A stretch of DNA of 48,228 nt, from assembly GCA_001782045.1 (NCBI GenBank), contig MFNK01000002.1:1-48228 (forward strand), written 5' to 3'. Position 1 is the stretch's first letter. Every line of letters begins with the position of its first letter. The notes beneath the pieces were generated by a model, which saw only the letters and a list, made by a program, of their open reading frames with translations, was not told the origin of the DNA and ran no database searches. Shown here one piece after another: positions 34,698 to 42,879 of this stretch. The position numbers and the translations under genes were made by a program. The DNA comes from Candidatus Levybacteria bacterium RIFCSPHIGHO2_01_FULL_36_15b (GTDB lineage Bacteria > Patescibacteriota > Microgenomatia > Levybacterales > UBA12049).

Positions 34698-35115
34698 GTC
34701 TTTCCATTAGTATGCTTCTTGTATTTTCATCTACTTGTTTAAAGTGCAAATCAATTCTTTTTTGAGGCAGAACTTCGTTCAGTTTTTCCGCCCACTCTAT
34801 TGCAAGAATGTTTTCTCTGCTTTTTATAAGCTCTGTTATACCTAAAGGTATTAAATCATCTTTTCCGTAAATACGATATAAATCTATATGATAAAAGTTA
34901 TAATTTTTTATTTCATAACTTCTCATTATTATAAAAGTGGGAGAAATAATTCTTTTTGATATTCCTAGTCCTTTTGCAAGGCCCTGAACAAAAGAGGTTT
35001 TTCCGCTACCCAAATTACCATATAAACAAACTATATCGCCTTTCCTTAGTTTCCTTGCAAGCTTTGTTCCGATTTCTTGAGTTTGCTTAACGCTATTGGT
35101 TATTATTGTCTCCAT
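34690..35115 (-). CDS. tsaE: tRNA threonylcarbamoyladenosine biosynthesis ATPase TsaE
   Basis: GNLGSGKT, SPTF, YHIDLYR, IEW. Confidence 0.95.
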   Translation of the reverse strand: METIITNSVKQTQEIGTKLARKLRKGDIVCLYGNLGSGKTSFVQGLAKGLGISKRIISPTFIIMRSYEIKNYNFYHIDLYRIYGKDDLIPLGITELIKSRENILAIEWAEKLNEVLPQKRIDLHFKQVDENTRSILMERHE

Positions 35116-35956
35116 TTGTCTTTAATAAAGTCTTTATTTTAGGCCAGAAAACAACTATAACACAAAGACCAATAAAAACAATTCCTAGCAAAATTGATAT
35201 AACTCCAATCCAGTTTGTAAAGTTTATTGAAGCCAATTTAGTATTCTTTGGACTATCCTCTGATTCATTTTTATTTGTAAAAATTCCTAGGATTCCCTGA
35301 TTTTTAGATTTAGTGCCGGATGGAGAAATAGAAGCTTGTGCAATTTTGTCTGTTGGTGTTGGGGTAGTTGACTTAGTCGGTGTTGGGGTTTTGGTCGGAG
35401 TTGGAGTTTTGGTAGGCGTAGGAGTTTTGCTTGGGGTTGGAGAATTTGTTGGAGACGAAGTTGGAGCTTGAGTTGGCGTGTGCGTTGGACCCGATATAGC
35501 AATTATTGTTTCAGAAGACCATGTTGGAGAAGAACCACAACTTGAGGTATAACTATAACGTCCGACTTTGAACAAATATTCACCCGGGCCATTGTAATTC
35601 GAATTTTCTTTGTCGGGCTTGAATTTTAATGTTCCACTCCAACTACCACTTTGCAACTCACTTTGTGCAATTTTAAAAAATGTAGTGCAATTTGCTCCTG
35701 TTTCATTACTCCAGTTTCCGTTATTATCTTGCGTATAGCCAAAATAACTGCTTCCGCTTGGATAAAAAATACCACGAATATAAGAGTCGCTACAACCTGA
35801 ACACACTAAATTTACATTAACCCCAAATTCCCCTGACTCATCCACAGAAGAAGGATAATTATTTATTGTAACCGTTACTGCCAAAACCGAATTTGTCTTC
35901 GGCACAAAGAGTAGAAATAAGATAAAAATAGCTCCTGTAAGAAGAGCTTTTCTCAT
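35093..35956 (-). CDS. Surface protein with Ig-like N-terminal domain, Thr/Pro-rich stalk and C-terminal TM anchor
   Basis: Signal peptide, Cys pairs, PT-rich linker, TM helix WIGVISILLGIVFIGLCVIVVFW. Confidence 0.75.
   Translation of the reverse strand: MRKALLTGAIFILFLLFVPKTNSVLAVTVTINNYPSSVDESGEFGVNVNLVCSGCSDSYIRGIFYPSGSSYFGYTQDNNGNWSNETGANCTTFFKIAQSELQSGSWSGTLKFKPDKENSNYNGPGEYLFKVGRYSYTSSCGSSPTWSSETIIAISGPTHTPTQAPTSSPTNSPTPSKTPTPTKTPTPTKTPTPTKSTTPTPTDKIAQASISPSGTKSKNQGILGIFTNKNESEDSPKNTKLASINFTNWIGVISILLGIVFIGLCVIVVFWPKIKTLLKTNGDNNNQ
35351..35489 (-). repeat. Degenerate 18-nt coding tandem repeat (TPTPTK)n
   Basis: Encodes PTHTPTQAPTSSPTNSPTPSKTPTPTKTPTPTKTPTPTKSTTPTPT. Confidence 0.8.
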
Positions 35957-38060: not shown

Positions 38061-38782
38061 TCTTTTTTATCCTCCTTTTCTTCTTCTTTTTTTTCTTTAT
38101 CTTTTACTCCGGTGTGTTTTTTATTTTCATCTTTAACTATTTTTCCTTTATCTATGTGAACGATTCGCTTATCCATGCTTTTTACAATATCCGTATTGTG
38201 AGTTGCCATAATAATTGTTGTTCCTTCCTTGTTAATGTCCGAAAGAATTTTAACAATTTCCCAAGATGTTGCAGCATCTAAATTTCCTGTCGGCTCATCA
38301 GCTAGTATTATTTCTGGGGATAATACTAAGGCTCTTGCAATAGCAACTCTTTGAAGTTCTCCTCCTGATAATTGAATAGGAAATTTATCTTTATGCTCAT
38401 AAATCCCCACTTTTCTTAAAATTCTTTCAACCTTTTCAGTCGCTTTTATAGCATTTTCACCAGAAACATCTAACGGCAGCATTACATTTTCAAAAATTGT
38501 TCTGTCGTTTAAAAGTTTTAAGTCTTGAAAAACAACCCCTATCATTTTTCGGAGCGTAGATAGCTTAGGTCTTGCAAGATTTACAACATCAAGTTCACCA
38601 ACTTTAACTTTTCCCTCTGTTGGGAGTAAATCCCTTATTAGAATTCTAAAAAGAGTTGTCTTTCCCGAGCCTGTCGCTCCAACCAAAAATAAAAATTCCC
38701 CTTTGTCTATTACGAGATTTATTTCAGAAAGTCCAAACGAACCAGTTCCAAATTTTTTGGATACGCCCTCAAGCTTTATCAT
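38057..38782 (-). CDS. ftsE: Cell division ATP-binding protein FtsE
   Basis: GATGSGKT, IGVVFQDLKLL, LSGGELQRVAIARA, ADEPTGNLD. Adjacent to ftsX. Confidence 0.93.
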   Translation of the reverse strand: MIKLEGVSKKFGTGSFGLSEINLVIDKGEFLFLVGATGSGKTTLFRILIRDLLPTEGKVKVGELDVVNLARPKLSTLRKMIGVVFQDLKLLNDRTIFENVMLPLDVSGENAIKATEKVERILRKVGIYEHKDKFPIQLSGGELQRVAIARALVLSPEIILADEPTGNLDAATSWEIVKILSDINKEGTTIIMATHNTDIVKSMDKRIVHIDKGKIVKDENKKHTGVKDKEKKEEEKEDKKE

Positions 38783-39264
38783 TACAATACCTCAATTTTA
38801 CCTACATCCATTAACCAACCTGCGTATTGTGCTTTTTGGGTTTGTCCCCAAACTTTTATTTTTTTACCTACAAATTGAGATAAATCAACAATCGATGAAG
38901 TTAAATAGACATTTTGACTTTCCCCACCCGAACGCTCTAAATGAAATGCCCCCTCATCTTCTATTCCACCTTCTTTTAGTACGCCTTCTACAGTATCTTT
39001 GAAGGTTTTAATATCATTTGAACCAACTATTGTTCCGGAGTCTGCCTGATTCTCTTTATTTGAAGTAGATGTATTTACCGATGTATTTATACCCTTTCCG
39101 GAAAGCATATATCCGCTAATTACGCCTAAAACAACAATTAAGCCTAGTAATGCAATTATTTTTGGAGTGAATGTTTTGCCTTGACCAAAGCTATGAATTA
39201 GGGGTTTACTAGTGGAACCAGAAATATTTTCTTGAGAATTTTGTTGTGTATTATTTTCTTCCAT
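38782..39264 (-). CDS. Membrane-anchored hypothetical protein with a small beta-barrel-like C-terminus
   Basis: One TM helix. YLTSSIVDLSQFVGKKIKVWG pattern. Confidence 0.7.
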   Translation of the reverse strand: MEENNTQQNSQENISGSTSKPLIHSFGQGKTFTPKIIALLGLIVVLGVISGYMLSGKGINTSVNTSTSNKENQADSGTIVGSNDIKTFKDTVEGVLKEGGIEDEGAFHLERSGGESQNVYLTSSIVDLSQFVGKKIKVWGQTQKAQYAGWLMDVGKIEVL

Positions 39265-39273
39265 CTATATTCA

Positions 39274-40311
39274 TCACCCATATCTAGTTAAGCACAAATT
39301 CCAACTTTTGGCAACTTTTAATCTTGTCTTCAATTTGTAACTATTAGCATGTGATAAATATCCAAGATAAGACTGGATACTCTGATTTAAAGAATAGTTA
39401 GAAATTTTTCCTTTTTTGTGCCCTTCAATTTTTTCGTTTACTTTTCTAAACAATCTTTTCTTAGTTTTGGTTCTTGGCAGAATATAGTTAGGCAAAATAA
39501 TATATCCCAGAAAATCTATTCCCCATGAAAGCTTTCTTAAGATAACTTTATCCGGATGTAGTTCAAGATTAAGTTTATCTTTTATAAATTTGCCAAGTAT
39601 ACATGTATACTTAGGTAGATGATTTTTGTTTGAAGATAAGATTACAAAATCATCTGCATATCGGATATAATATTTGATTTTTAATGTATGTTTTATAAAT
39701 TGATCTAATTCATCTAGGTAAATATTTGCAAAAATCTGGCTTGTTAAATTTCCAAGAGGAATTCCTTTTTCTAAACCTTGTTCTGAAGCAAAACTATTAA
39801 TGACGTCCTTCAATAACATCAGAATATTTTCATCGTCTATTTTCTTTTTTAGAAACTGGACTACTATTGCATGGTTTACGCTTGCAAAAAACTTTTTAAT
39901 ATCAAATTTTAGAGCAAAACAGTCTCTTGAATAATTTTTCGAGACAATCCTGGTAAATTTATAAAGCCTTTTAACTCCTTTATGTGTTCCTTTGTTTAAT
40001 CGGCAGGAATATGAATCATAAATAAAGGATTTATCGAAAATGTCGTAAAGGAATTTGTATAAGAGATGGTGAAGAATTCTATCTGCAACACTTGCTTTAT
40101 GGATATGCCGTCTTTTCGGATCGTTAACGAAAAAGTCCTCGTAGTCTCCGTGTCTATAAGTCTTGTGTTTCAATTTATGCTGAAGAGAAAATAGGTTATC
40201 TTCGAGGTTACGCTCGAAAATTTGAAGATCAAGTCTTTTCTTCTTTCCTCTCCTAAATTCAGCGTAGGCTTGAAAAAGATTTTCTATTGTTATAAGCTGT
40301 TGATAATTCAT
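39274..40311 (-). CDS. DGR reverse transcriptase
   Basis: PKRRHI..ADRILHH, FDIKKFF, GIPLGNLTSQIFANIYL (DGR-type LGxxxSQ), YIRYADDF, GIDFLGY. No maturase, endonuclease or RNase H domain. Start ATG 40311 (the MCVCVCV extension is the TG repeat read through). Confidence 0.95.
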   Translation of the reverse strand: MNYQQLITIENLFQAYAEFRRGKKKRLDLQIFERNLEDNLFSLQHKLKHKTYRHGDYEDFFVNDPKRRHIHKASVADRILHHLLYKFLYDIFDKSFIYDSYSCRLNKGTHKGVKRLYKFTRIVSKNYSRDCFALKFDIKKFFASVNHAIVVQFLKKKIDDENILMLLKDVINSFASEQGLEKGIPLGNLTSQIFANIYLDELDQFIKHTLKIKYYIRYADDFVILSSNKNHLPKYTCILGKFIKDKLNLELHPDKVILRKLSWGIDFLGYIILPNYILPRTKTKKRLFRKVNEKIEGHKKGKISNYSLNQSIQSYLGYLSHANSYKLKTRLKVAKSWNLCLTRYG

Positions 40312-40749
40312 ATGAGTAACAACAATAAATCTGTTCACACACACACACACACACACACCGATAGTAATTTAGCCCGCCCGCAAACGTCTGAGCGTAGCGA
40401 TGGCGCGCAGGATATTCCGATTTTTACCAAAACTTACGAGTTTTATAGACAGTTAACTGCTATAATTCCCTCTTTTCCTAAAACTAAAAGATATACTCTT
40501 GGACAAAGGCTCGATAATATAACTCTAGATATTTTCGAGCTCTTATTTTCTATTCCTGCAAGCTCAAATAAACTCCTAGTTTTGCAAAAATTTAGTGTTA
40601 AACTCGATCTCTTAAAAGTTTTGATACGACTCTCTAAGGATTCTCAAGTGCTAAGCAATAATAATTACTTAAAACTTCAGGAAATATTACAGGAAATTGG
40701 CAAAATGCTTGGAGGATGGATAAAAGCCTCCAAGCAAGCCTCGCCATAA
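40312..40749 (+). CDS. avd: DGR accessory variability determinant Avd (four-helix bundle)
   Basis: IPIFTKTYE, FPKTKRYTLGQRL, LDLLKVLIRL, EIGKMLGGWIK are Avd-family motifs. Adjacent to RT and TR. Start moved to ATG 40312. Confidence 0.88.
   Translation: MSNNNKSVHTHTHTHTDSNLARPQTSERSDGAQDIPIFTKTYEFYRQLTAIIPSFPKTKRYTLGQRLDNITLDIFELLFSIPASSNKLLVLQKFSVKLDLLKVLIRLSKDSQVLSNNNYLKLQEILQEIGKMLGGWIKASKQASP
40336..40358. repeat. Dinucleotide microsatellite (CA)11C
   Basis: CACACACACACACACACACACAC counted directly. Encodes HTHTHTHT in Avd. Confidence 0.97.
40372..40408. repeat. GC-rich imperfect inverted repeat (REP-like) in the avd 5' region
   Basis: Arms GCCCGCC / GGCGCGC (6 of 7 pair). 27 of 37 bases are G/C. 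Confidence 0.55.
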
Positions 40750-40763
40750 ATTTATTACCAGAT

Positions 40764-40880
40764 ACTATCAGAGGAGAAGCCCAAACATTGTCATTGCCAT
40801 TATCACGATTCCAGTTGTTGACGTTAAGGCCATTATCGGGATTGAAGTTGCCGACATTGGCAACATTGGACTCAACTTTT
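40764..40880 (-). ncRNA. DGR template repeat (TR)
   Basis: 117 bp with 103/117 identity to 41190-41306. All 14 differences are at TR adenines (minus strand). Rich in AAY codons (12 Asn). Confidence 0.95.
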
Positions 40881-41167
40881 ATACATCTCTCCGTTTTAAG
40901 AAAACTCACCAAAGATTCTATTACAGTTTCTTTTGTATTTTATCCGCCCCAAGTATTGCCGAAGGGCAAAGAAAGATATACGTAGTGTCTAGTAAATTTT
41001 CATTAAGCACTCTCCTCACCAAAAAAAGTAAAGACTCTGACTTTAAAAATTCTAGAGATAAACGAGGAATAAAACTTGTTTAAGCCTACACTGCTTATCT
41101 TAATTGAGGTTACCAAAAATTTGGACGGATTCCAAGAGACAAAAAAAACAAAAATCCAAGAATCCAA

Positions 41168-41851
41168 TTACTTAGTTCCAGATGTTGGCACTACCAGAGG
41201 AGAAGCCCAAACATCGCCATGGCCATGAGCACGATGCCAGTAGTTGACGCTAAGGCCATTATCGGGATTGAAGTCGCCGACAGTGGCAACATGGGACCCA
41301 ACTGTTGGAGTCTGAGTTCTTGTGTAATTGTAGTCGTATTTTTCTCCAAATAATTCATTGTTTTGAAAAGCTAGCTCTATGTAGTCTGCTGCTTCTCCGA
41401 GTATAGCTTTTACCCCTGATATTCTTTGGGAAAGAGCTTTATTTTGTTCTTCTACCATTTCAAGCTGCTTGTCTAAGGTTTTATTGTTGGAGTCAGGAAT
41501 GAAGAACTCATCGGGGTCAGTCTTTATTGCAACTTGTCCGACTCTAGACTGCAGGGTTTCGAATTGGGGATTTTGCTCATGCCAGGTTGACCAAAATTTA
41601 AAACCTTTAGCTTTAAGAGTTGCTATTGATTCTCCAGTTAGAGTATATATTTGATATCCTTCTTCTTCGAGTAATCTTGTCTGTTCTGAAGTGAATGTAC
41701 CTTCCTCCCTTGTTTCGGGTGCTTGAAGCTCTACATCTTCAGCAAGAAGCTCTTCTGCAGCCTTATGCGTTGGTTTACCACGCACATTATACGGATCTTG
41801 ATCTACCCACTCATCTGGCCTTTGAAAATCATCTTTTTTTGGTTCAGGCAT
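41168..41851 (-). CDS. DGR target protein with C-terminal variable region (CLec-fold-like)
   Basis: 227 aa. The C-terminus TVGSHVATVGDFNPDNGLSVNYWHRAHGHGDVWASPLVV is the diversified copy of TR. No signal peptide or TM helix seen. Confidence 0.92.
   Translation of the reverse strand: MPEPKKDDFQRPDEWVDQDPYNVRGKPTHKAAEELLAEDVELQAPETREEGTFTSEQTRLLEEEGYQIYTLTGESIATLKAKGFKFWSTWHEQNPQFETLQSRVGQVAIKTDPDEFFIPDSNNKTLDKQLEMVEEQNKALSQRISGVKAILGEAADYIELAFQNNELFGEKYDYNYTRTQTPTVGSHVATVGDFNPDNGLSVNYWHRAHGHGDVWASPLVVPTSGTK
41190..41306 (-). repeat. DGR variable repeat (VR)
   Basis: Ungapped alignment to TR at offset 426. Substitutions: A>G x6, A>C x7, A>T x1. Confidence 0.95.
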
Positions 41852-41857
41852 AAGAGT

Positions 41858-41866
41858 ATTATAACA
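41858..41866 (-). promoter_or_regulatory. Extended -10 promoter TGTTATAAT of the DGR target (leaderless)
   Basis: Consensus TGnTATAAT ending 6 nt before ATG 41851. Confidence 0.65.
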
Positions 41867-41874
41867 AAAATGAA

Positions 41875-42879
41875 CTATAGCTTCCTTAAGGCCTCGTCAA
41901 TGAAGACATCTATCTCACCGTTGAGTACTGCTTCAGTGTTAGATGTTTCATATCCAGTTCTTAAGTCCTTCACCATTTTATAAGGATGCAGCACATAAGA
42001 GCGAATTTGGTTTCCCCAACCCGGTGTTTTATAAACGCCTTTTGCGGCTACCTCTTCTTTTTTTCTTTCTTCTTCTTGCATTAACCAAAGCTTGCCTCTA
42101 AGTAAATTTAGAGCATACTCCCTATTTTTACCTTGATATCTTTCGCTATGAGCAGTAACTATTATACCTGTAGGTTTGTGCTTTAGCCTTACAGCAGTTG
42201 AAACTTTATTTACGTTTTGTCCGCCATGTCCTCCGCTTCTGAAAAAATCCCAGTCTAAATCTTCTTCCTTAATCTCAACACTTCCGTTCTTTGCTAAATT
42301 AGGCAAAACCTCAACAAGCGCAAAAGATGTTTGTCTTAATTTATCTGCATTAAAAGGCGACTGCCTTACTAATCTGTGCACCCCCGCTTCGTGTTTTAAA
42401 AACCCATATGCAAATTCTGCCTCAACCGTTATGGTTATGCTTTTCATGCCAGCTTCATCACCAGGAGTCTCATCGATGGTTTCAAACTTCCAGCCTTTTT
42501 TCTCAAAAAATCTGCTATACATTCTAAATAACATTTGGGTCCAATCCATTGCTTCTACGCCTCCTTGTCCTGCGTGAAGAGACATAATTGCTCCATCTTT
42601 ATCAAAGGGATGCGAAAAATATAAATAAGTCTCAAGTTTTTCAACTAAATTTTCTAAGCCATTAGTGTCACTGCCATCTATTTTTTCGGAAAGTAACTGA
42701 AGATCTGTTATTTCTTCCTGAATTTTTGCCAACTCTTTCATCTTGGAAGTTGCCTCTTGTGGATTTTTCCAGAAATTTGGTTCTGAAGATAACGCCTCTA
42801 ATTGAAAGGCTGTAAGTCTTTTTTCTTCCAAGTTTGCTTTTTCTAAAATTTTTTTAGCTCGCTTCTGTAAGTTTTCCAT
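41875..42879 (-). CDS. prfB: Peptide chain release factor 2 (continuous frame)
   Basis: HAGQGG.EA.DW..ML.RMY, SPF anticodon mimic (RQSPF), GGQ (GGHGGQNVN), WGNQIRSYV. Confidence 0.95.

Follow-up and report, generated by a model that had tools for sequence, protein, structure and literature searches.

A CA Repeat in the avd Leader as a Probable Phase-Variation Switch on a Patescibacteria Diversity-Generating Retroelement

A diversity-generating retroelement (DGR) lies in the 48,228-nt contig stretch of Candidatus Levybacteria bacterium RIFCSPHIGHO2_01_FULL_36_15b considered here (the window; coordinates are 1-based), and its genes for the accessory protein Avd and for the reverse transcriptase (RT) diverge from abutting start codons. 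Just inside avd, the sequence contains a perfect CA repeat. After analyzing the element in the window and in public data, we consider this tract to be a slipped-strand phase-variation (contingency) switch on avd and, through avd, on DGR hypermutation, and we place the probability of this reading at roughly 0.7. The parts of avd that are needed for the argument are the following:

40312..40335, + strand: avd start codon and pre-tract leader (MSNNNKSV), from the translation of the open reading frame (ORF)
40336..40358, + strand: (CA)11C tract, CACACACACACACACACACACAC, 23 nt, perfect, (GT)n on the RT strand; the hypermutable element
40359..40371, + strand: post-tract linker, which finishes the last Thr codon (ACC) and then encodes DSNL
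40372..40410, + strand: 39-nt GC-rich hairpin, an in-frame insert of 13 codons, ARPQTSERSDGAQ
40411..40749, + strand: Avd four-helix-bundle core (D34-P145) and stop codon, from Pfam bAvd, AlphaFold and homologues

The first base of the tract is 24 nt from the A of the avd ATG (40312-40314), and the avd frame reads the tract as CAC ACA four times (HTHTHTHT), with ACC as the final threonine codon. Seen from the RT side, it occupies the interval 25-47 nt upstream of the RT ATG (40311-40309, - strand). No other dinucleotide repeat of five or more units occurs in the window. When the window was simulated 200 times with a first-order Markov model, its longest dinucleotide run had a mean length of 8.6 nt and a maximum of 14 nt, compared with the 23 nt observed; the perfect repeat is thus much longer than chance would produce, as is usual for a phase-variable locus. 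A preliminary description of this DNA had reported the same length, encoded peptide and distances from the two start codons and had seen no similar dinucleotide run elsewhere in the window, and each of these statements was confirmed on the sequence.

The avd ORF extends from the ATG at 40312 to 40749 and encodes 145 aa. When this ORF was rebuilt in silico with 6-15 CA units, full-length Avd was obtained at 8, 11 and 14 units alone (143, 145 and 147 aa), and all of the remaining tract lengths led to termination after 14-22 residues (with the endings ...HTHTHR or ...HTPIVI before the stop codon). In the window, the interval from the tract to the Avd core contains no in-frame ATG, GTG or TTG. The tract is therefore placed, as in phase-variable loci, where a change in length alters the frame and where no start codon offers a bypass. 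The preliminary description had noted the lack of an in-frame ATG before the DIPIFTK core, to which GTG and TTG can now be added. It had also proposed that the gain or loss of one or two units would shift the frame of Avd and that the present allele is ON, and the rebuilt ORFs agree with both proposals because only three of the ten lengths preserve the protein and the 11 units of the window are among them.

The Avd core begins at D34 (codon 40411-40413). The match to Pfam bAvd (E = 2e-19) places profile position 5 at residue 39, and AlphaFold (43 homologues) returned a confident four-helix bundle for residues 34-143 (predicted local distance difference test score, pLDDT, >90) and disorder for residues 1-33 (pLDDT ~40). 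According to this model, the part of Avd that is encoded by the repeat is predicted to be a dispensable leader that tolerates changes in length.

Under the mechanism that we propose, slipped-strand mispairing during replication would add or remove CA units, and each unit would shift the frame by 2 nt. Only tracts of 8, 11, 14 and so forth units would connect the ATG at 40312 to the Avd core, and any other length would yield a peptide of 14-22 aa, with no alternative start for the core. Because cDNA synthesis by DGR reverse transcriptases depends on Avd, out-of-frame cells would halt mutagenic retrohoming into the variable repeat (VR) of the target gene, and rare slippage would restore it. Whether a lineage hypermutates would then be set at random, inherited and open to reversal. 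The reverse transcriptase bRT of the Bordetella phage shows no reverse transcriptase activity alone and requires Avd (PMC6182149), and by analogy, we infer that the RT of the present element also depends on Avd. Translation of Avd probably begins at the ATG at 40312, out-of-frame alleles would be expected to yield no Avd, and switching is presumably reversible within a lineage.

The tract is hypermutable in nature. The runs that contain the window genome are public groundwater metagenomes, and their public assemblies break at the tract into short bubble pieces that differ solely in tract length. The alleles found in the unitigs and contigs of these runs, in an independent assembly of the same species (L001) and in the window are as follows:

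X1 (flank depth 10.5): 11 units (depth 5.2) and 10 units (depth 4.6)
X2: 10 units (depth 8.6)
X3: 9 units (depth 6.3), 10 units (depth 3.6) and 12 units (depth 7.3)
X4: 9 units (depth 2.7)
X7: 9 units (depth 3.5)
L001: 8 units
Window: 11 units

Overall, the alleles range from 8 to 12 units, and a single run may hold two (X1) or three (X3) of them; the alleles in the runs have depths similar to one another and to the flanks. The variant pieces had no reported base substitutions in their flanks, and the flanks of L001 are 99.6-100% identical to those of the window. Furthermore, in a sister species, the tracts of two loci, L002 (in frame) and L007 (out of frame), are one CA unit apart next to a 650-nt flank that is 100% identical. 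Length polymorphism on otherwise identical sequence, which is expected of a phase-variable locus, is thus present here, and the invariant repeat length that the preliminary description had named as grounds for abandoning a switch was not found.

Because dinucleotide runs stutter in amplified libraries and because the assemblies break at the tract, the length variants might be attributed to polymerase chain reaction (PCR) or sequencing stutter or to assembly error at a low-complexity run. We find this explanation hardly credible. The depth of the variant unitigs equals or exceeds that of the reference allele, and in some runs a variant is the sole allele. Independent assemblies from different studies have fixed different lengths, and protein databases contain 2-aa length classes on many contigs. 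Stutter is excluded by the allele depths together with the fixed differences from one assembly to another. In X1-X8, contigs of other, more abundant organisms (5-12 kb, 15-66x) end exactly at (CA)n followed by the same CCGATAGTAATTT linker; evidently, the assemblies of other DGR-bearing species also break at their tracts.

A protein search identified 473 Avd homologues, all from Patescibacteria (candidate phyla radiation, CPR). Many of these proteins carry (HT)n of varied length just before the DIPIFTKLY core, others have PPP or ERERER before the core, and some begin directly at MDIPIF. We fetched 160 related loci, 152 of them distinct, from species-representative genomes and metagenomes. RT and avd are arranged head to head in 154 of the 156 loci that have RT, and the RT ATG and the Avd core are separated by 15-120 nt. 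A repeat occurs in this interval in 53 of the 152 distinct loci, and five kinds of motif are represented: (CA)4 to (CA)20.5, (AG)12, poly-C of C7 to C14, (CAGGA)7-10 and (CAGA)4.5. The tracts of the relatives are 8-49 nt long and lie 4-65 nt from the RT ATG. Repeats other than those of A/T have a density of 6.7/kb in the leaders versus 0.045/kb in the remaining 625 kb, which represents an enrichment of ~150-fold. A search for tracts at the 5' ends of avd in relatives had been suggested in the preliminary description, and it shows that, as in known phase-variable loci, the repeat is kept at the orthologous site with a varied length and motif; other relatives have a repeat in RT instead. Different motifs occur at one site, some of them with units of 4 or 5 nt, which are unable to encode a constant peptide; this variety points to selection for instability and not for a particular sequence.

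The same variety bears on the idea that the repeat is kept for its peptide, namely a functional His-Thr tail (for example, one that binds metal) in which length polymorphism is in frame. Although (HT)n is frequent at the Avd N-termini of the clade, relatives have PPP, ERER, peptides encoded by penta- or tetranucleotides or no leader at this site. Moreover, most length changes observed in nature do not amount to multiples of 6 nt, and the segment is predicted to be disordered. Because other motifs fill the same site, a functional His-Thr peptide was rejected, and we regard retention for the peptide as very doubtful.

Comparison of the repeat-bearing loci indicates that the leader tract is translated. 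In 51 of the 53 loci, an ATG stands 3-34 nt upstream, and its frame runs open into the tract; the poly-C group has this ATG immediately next to the tract (ATGCCCCCCC). The post-tract linker is open in the frame of the core in 52 of the 53, compared with ~68% estimated by chance at that length and base composition, and the linker peptides DFGL, DFTL, AYSSL, DSNL and PIVGL are kept in the core frame in in-frame and out-of-frame loci alike. A start downstream of the tract is not conserved: TTG occupies the -1 codon in one of the 53 loci, and in 27 of them, there is no near-cognate start either. The preliminary description had held that a start downstream of the tract would speak against the switch; no ATG, GTG or TTG stands there in frame in the window or in almost all relatives. 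The upstream ATG is in frame with the Avd core in 19 of the assembled loci and out of frame in 32. Avd clusters at >=90% identity contain full-length forms that are one HT or ER (6 nt) apart, and truncated Avd gene calls, which begin at internal codons, are on ~120 contigs, compared with ~66 for full-length forms.

These data must also be weighed against the view that the leader is neutral and unstable and that Avd is made regardless of its length, whether by a non-canonical start, reinitiation after a short leader ORF, ribosomal frameshifting or transcriptional slippage. The in-frame fraction of 19/51 is near the one third expected without constraint, a few lineages have a TTG directly before the core that gene callers take as the start, and long poly-C tracts could allow transcriptional slippage. 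However, the lack of a conserved start between the tract and the core is difficult to reconcile with this view, and linkers that are open and conserved in peptide, together with an ATG ahead of the tract, are unexpected for a non-coding spacer. Neutral drift leaves the concentration of five motifs at one site unexplained. The view also fails to explain the repeat that some relatives carry midway through the RT ORF, where no alternative start could rescue RT. We consider production of Avd independent of the frame to be unlikely.

This second repeat site was found in 18 of the 136 relatives in which the RT mid-region is covered. On the coding strand of RT, the repeat reads (AG)n (8-71 nt) or G10, and none of the 18 loci has an avd-leader repeat. 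It falls at residues ~176-183 of RT, where in-frame alleles encode ...RERERE... just before the conserved motif GIPIGNLTSQ and upstream of the catalytic motif YADD. Four loci are in frame, and 12 are frameshifted, with stop codons immediately after the tract. The RT-repeat loci that were named and two example positions are given below:

Loci with an RT repeat: L026, L034, L051, L061, L065, L074, L077, L079, L082, L132, L134, L147, L149, L150, L156 and L159
L149:1906-1926, RT repeat
L065:1848-1918, RT repeat

In the species of L149, an in-frame allele dominates in X21 and X24, and the allele that dominates in X22 and X23, which belong to the same aquifer study, lacks 2 nt; the alleles are otherwise identical over 116 nt. 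No near-identical pairs were found among the RT-repeat loci at >=90% flank identity. The coding status of the RT-internal repeats is unambiguous. Because repeats occur in either of the two essential DGR protein genes, these loci provide strong independent support for a switch function.

A third recurrent site was observed in several distant relatives, 50-90 nt beyond the RT stop codon, where a long tract of CCAA, TCCA or CCAT units (23-49 nt) or a (CT)7.5 tract stands. The surroundings of these post-RT repeats showed no clear ORF context, and the repeats are located as follows:

L031:1407-1447
L048:1356-1378
L066:1408-1439
L144:344-392
L042:1345-1359

A further alternative is that the tract acts mainly on RT, so that its length tunes the geometry of the RT promoter or the 5' untranslated region and the avd frameshift is secondary; such an effect may coexist with a switch on avd. 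In every case, the tract falls between the two divergent start codons, close to the RT ATG. In the window (CATATG, 40309-40314) and in most related loci, the start codons of RT and avd abut, and in some relatives, they even overlap; because the intergenic distance is zero, the promoter of each gene must lie inside the other gene. Nevertheless, no -35/-10 pair brackets the tract in our scan, which covered sigma-70 consensus promoters only, and the range of tract lengths between species is incompatible with a fixed promoter spacer of 16-18 nt. In addition, an ATG that abuts the tract, as in the poly-C subgroup, is typical of translational switches, and relatives that target RT have the repeat within the ORF and not in a promoter. 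An action exerted mainly on RT therefore seems to us improbable. The scan for promoters and terminators located nothing adjoining the tract, and no RNA-seq run was listed as containing the locus. We also do not propose a structured RNA around the tract, because neither strand of 40300-40440, folded by itself, was more stable than shuffled sequence; an Rfam scan of 38500-42500 on both strands gave no match at the tract or at the hairpin.

Several observations weigh against a contingency switch on avd and should be stated together. No recognizable ribosome-binding site precedes the ATG at 40312, and the promoter scan located no promoter. The alleles were read from assembly unitigs and contigs and not from raw reads, which places rare alleles and exact frequencies outside their reach. 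Since the tract precedes the RT start as well, any influence on the expression of RT is inseparable from an effect on avd. Many of the related loci share phylogeny, and the counts given above are not counts of independent events. The proportion of loci in frame (~37%) is approximately what a non-coding tract would give (one third), as would a locus that switches often, and this statistic alone does not discriminate between the readings; the upstream ATG, the open and conserved linkers and the lack of a conserved downstream start do. Finally, the species of L149 has the same dominant VR contig, or haplotype, across samples (X21-X23) despite the change in the state of its RT repeat, and no association of allele state with VR diversity was seen, with the qualification that contigs drop rare variants. 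On the whole, the stochastic toggling of hypermutation that the preliminary description had suggested is supported, in that the tract varies in length and no start downstream of it was found; the consequences for expression and retrohoming are predictions from the sequence.

The remaining components of the DGR are the following:

39274..40311, - strand: DGR reverse transcriptase gene (Pfam RVT_1, E = 1e-21), divergent from avd
40764..40880, - strand: template repeat (TR), from repeat comparison
41190..41306, - strand: VR, from TR/VR comparison, at the 3' end of the target gene
41168..41851, - strand: target gene of the DGR, encoding 227 aa; its 3' end carries the VR

The order on the - strand is thus the target gene (41851-41168) with its VR, the TR, the inverted avd and RT. 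A layout with inverted avd corresponds to the 'B3' architecture, to which 90% of CPR DGRs are reported to belong (Wu et al. 2018, PMC5758913). All of the 14 differences between the TR and the VR are at TR adenines. The VR haplotypes are unlike between runs X1-X4, two of them occur together in X3, and their differences are at TR-adenine positions; therefore, the element has been diversifying in the population. With its RT, its TR/VR pair, Avd and diversification of the VR, the locus is a complete, bona fide DGR of CPR architecture.

The target protein (41168-41851, - strand) has no Pfam family match and is recognizable as a target only by its C-terminal VR segment (…NPDNGLSVNYWHRAHGHGDVWASP…). 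Directly upstream of the TR, 40876-41034 (- strand) has a weak match to Rfam RT-16, an RNA motif associated with reverse transcriptases (30 bits against a gathering score of 50, E = 0.09); this was the only Rfam match near the tract, and Rfam searches of 20 related loci found no RT-associated family at the gathering score. Within avd, the segment 40693-40725, which encodes the C-terminal EIGKMLGGWI of Avd, has a depth of 100-275x and occurs on ~10 other contigs per run. The excess depth comes from these other contigs, so conservation of the segment extends to the DNA level in other members of the community. On the TR/RT strand, its antisense falls a short distance 3' of the TR, where the Bordetella system has its Avd-binding spacer RNA.

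The hairpin at 40372-40410 has an outer stem of GCCCGCC/GGCGGGC and lies between DSNL and DIPIF. It is present only in the closest relatives and absent from most. Near-copies with 2-4 mismatches are found on ~36 other short contigs per groundwater run, with unrelated flanks and a summed depth of ~1800x, compared with 10x for the window genome. No further copies were found in the window, in viral contigs or outside avd in ~700 kb of related loci. The hairpin resembles a small dispersed palindromic element. Elsewhere in the window, 35376-35442 is an 18-nt tandem repeat of 3.7 copies that encodes KTPTPT units in a Pro/Thr-rich linker. Its host is a 287-aa secreted or membrane-anchored protein (35093-35956, - strand), the length of which the in-frame repeat would change without a change of frame.

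Translational contingency loci are known from pathogenic bacteria, and examples are lic1 of Haemophilus influenzae with (CAAT)n, the opa genes of Neisseria with (CTCTT)n and the poly-G genes of Campylobacter. The avd tract resembles them in that a perfect repeat stands just past the start codon, a change of one unit shifts the frame and alleles coexist. Orthologues keep the repeat and vary its length, and assembled genomes are a mixture of in-frame and out-of-frame forms. In contrast to these loci, the gene that would be switched here encodes the accessory protein of a hypermutation retroelement and not a surface or restriction-modification function, the hosts are free-living or episymbiotic groundwater Patescibacteria and not host-adapted pathogens, and dinucleotide units are uncommon in the classical examples. 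As the tract has every sequence-level property of translational contingency loci for which we looked, it would be expected to work in the same manner.

Phase variation can also act through promoter spacing, as with the (TA)n between the divergent promoters of hifA and hifB in Haemophilus influenzae. The likeness consists of a dinucleotide tract between two divergent genes of one system. However, the tract described here is inside one ORF, has no recognizable flanking -35/-10 boxes and varies among species over a range that is unfit for a spacer. A promoter-spacer switch of this type was rejected because the sigma-70 consensus scan, which was restricted to that class, found no sigma-70-like pair around the tract.

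The DGR shares with that of phage BPP-1 (mtd-avd-TR-brt) and with the CPR B3 elements an RT, an Avd four-helix bundle, adenine-specific TR/VR differences and a VR at the 3' end of the target, and it differs in the head-to-head placement of avd and RT, whose start codons abut. No repeat-based switch has been described for BPP-1 or in the DGR surveys that we examined. An analogy in terms of function would be the phasevarions, in which mod methyltransferases are phase-variable, and mutator genes that are controlled by repeats. In these systems, as would be the case here, a hypermutable repeat governs a diversifying system for the whole population, which amounts to two-tier bet-hedging. The difference is that the downstream system of the DGR is site-directed (one VR) and not genome-wide. 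We found no literature that links DGRs or Avd to repeat-mediated phase variation in a search that left the main survey of CPR DGRs (Paul et al. 2017) outside its scope. The finding is thus apparently a known switching mechanism placed on a hypermutation retroelement, in an apparently recurrent design that is new to the literature searched.

How the activity of DGRs is controlled is an unsettled question, and surveys show many DGRs that look intact but are inactive. A repeat that gates Avd, or RT in relatives, would be a purely genetic and reversible switch, and if this is true, it would add a second level of bet-hedging, that of whether to diversify. The length of the tract can be read from metagenomes, and systems that reconstitute DGRs in E. 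coli now exist. On balance, we lean toward a broader reading in which repeat-driven phase variation would be a general and repeatedly evolved control layer of Patescibacteria DGRs, exerted through the avd leader (at least five motifs) or through the middle of RT. Approximately two thirds of natural populations would then be OFF at any time, and many 'broken' DGR genes would represent OFF phases and not decay. Gene callers give a truncated Avd or a split RT for approximately two thirds of the loci; because of these calls and of the breaks in the assemblies, censuses of CPR DGRs probably under-count or mis-annotate functional elements. If the OFF-phase reading is true, many of the truncated DGR genes in metagenome assemblies are not decayed.

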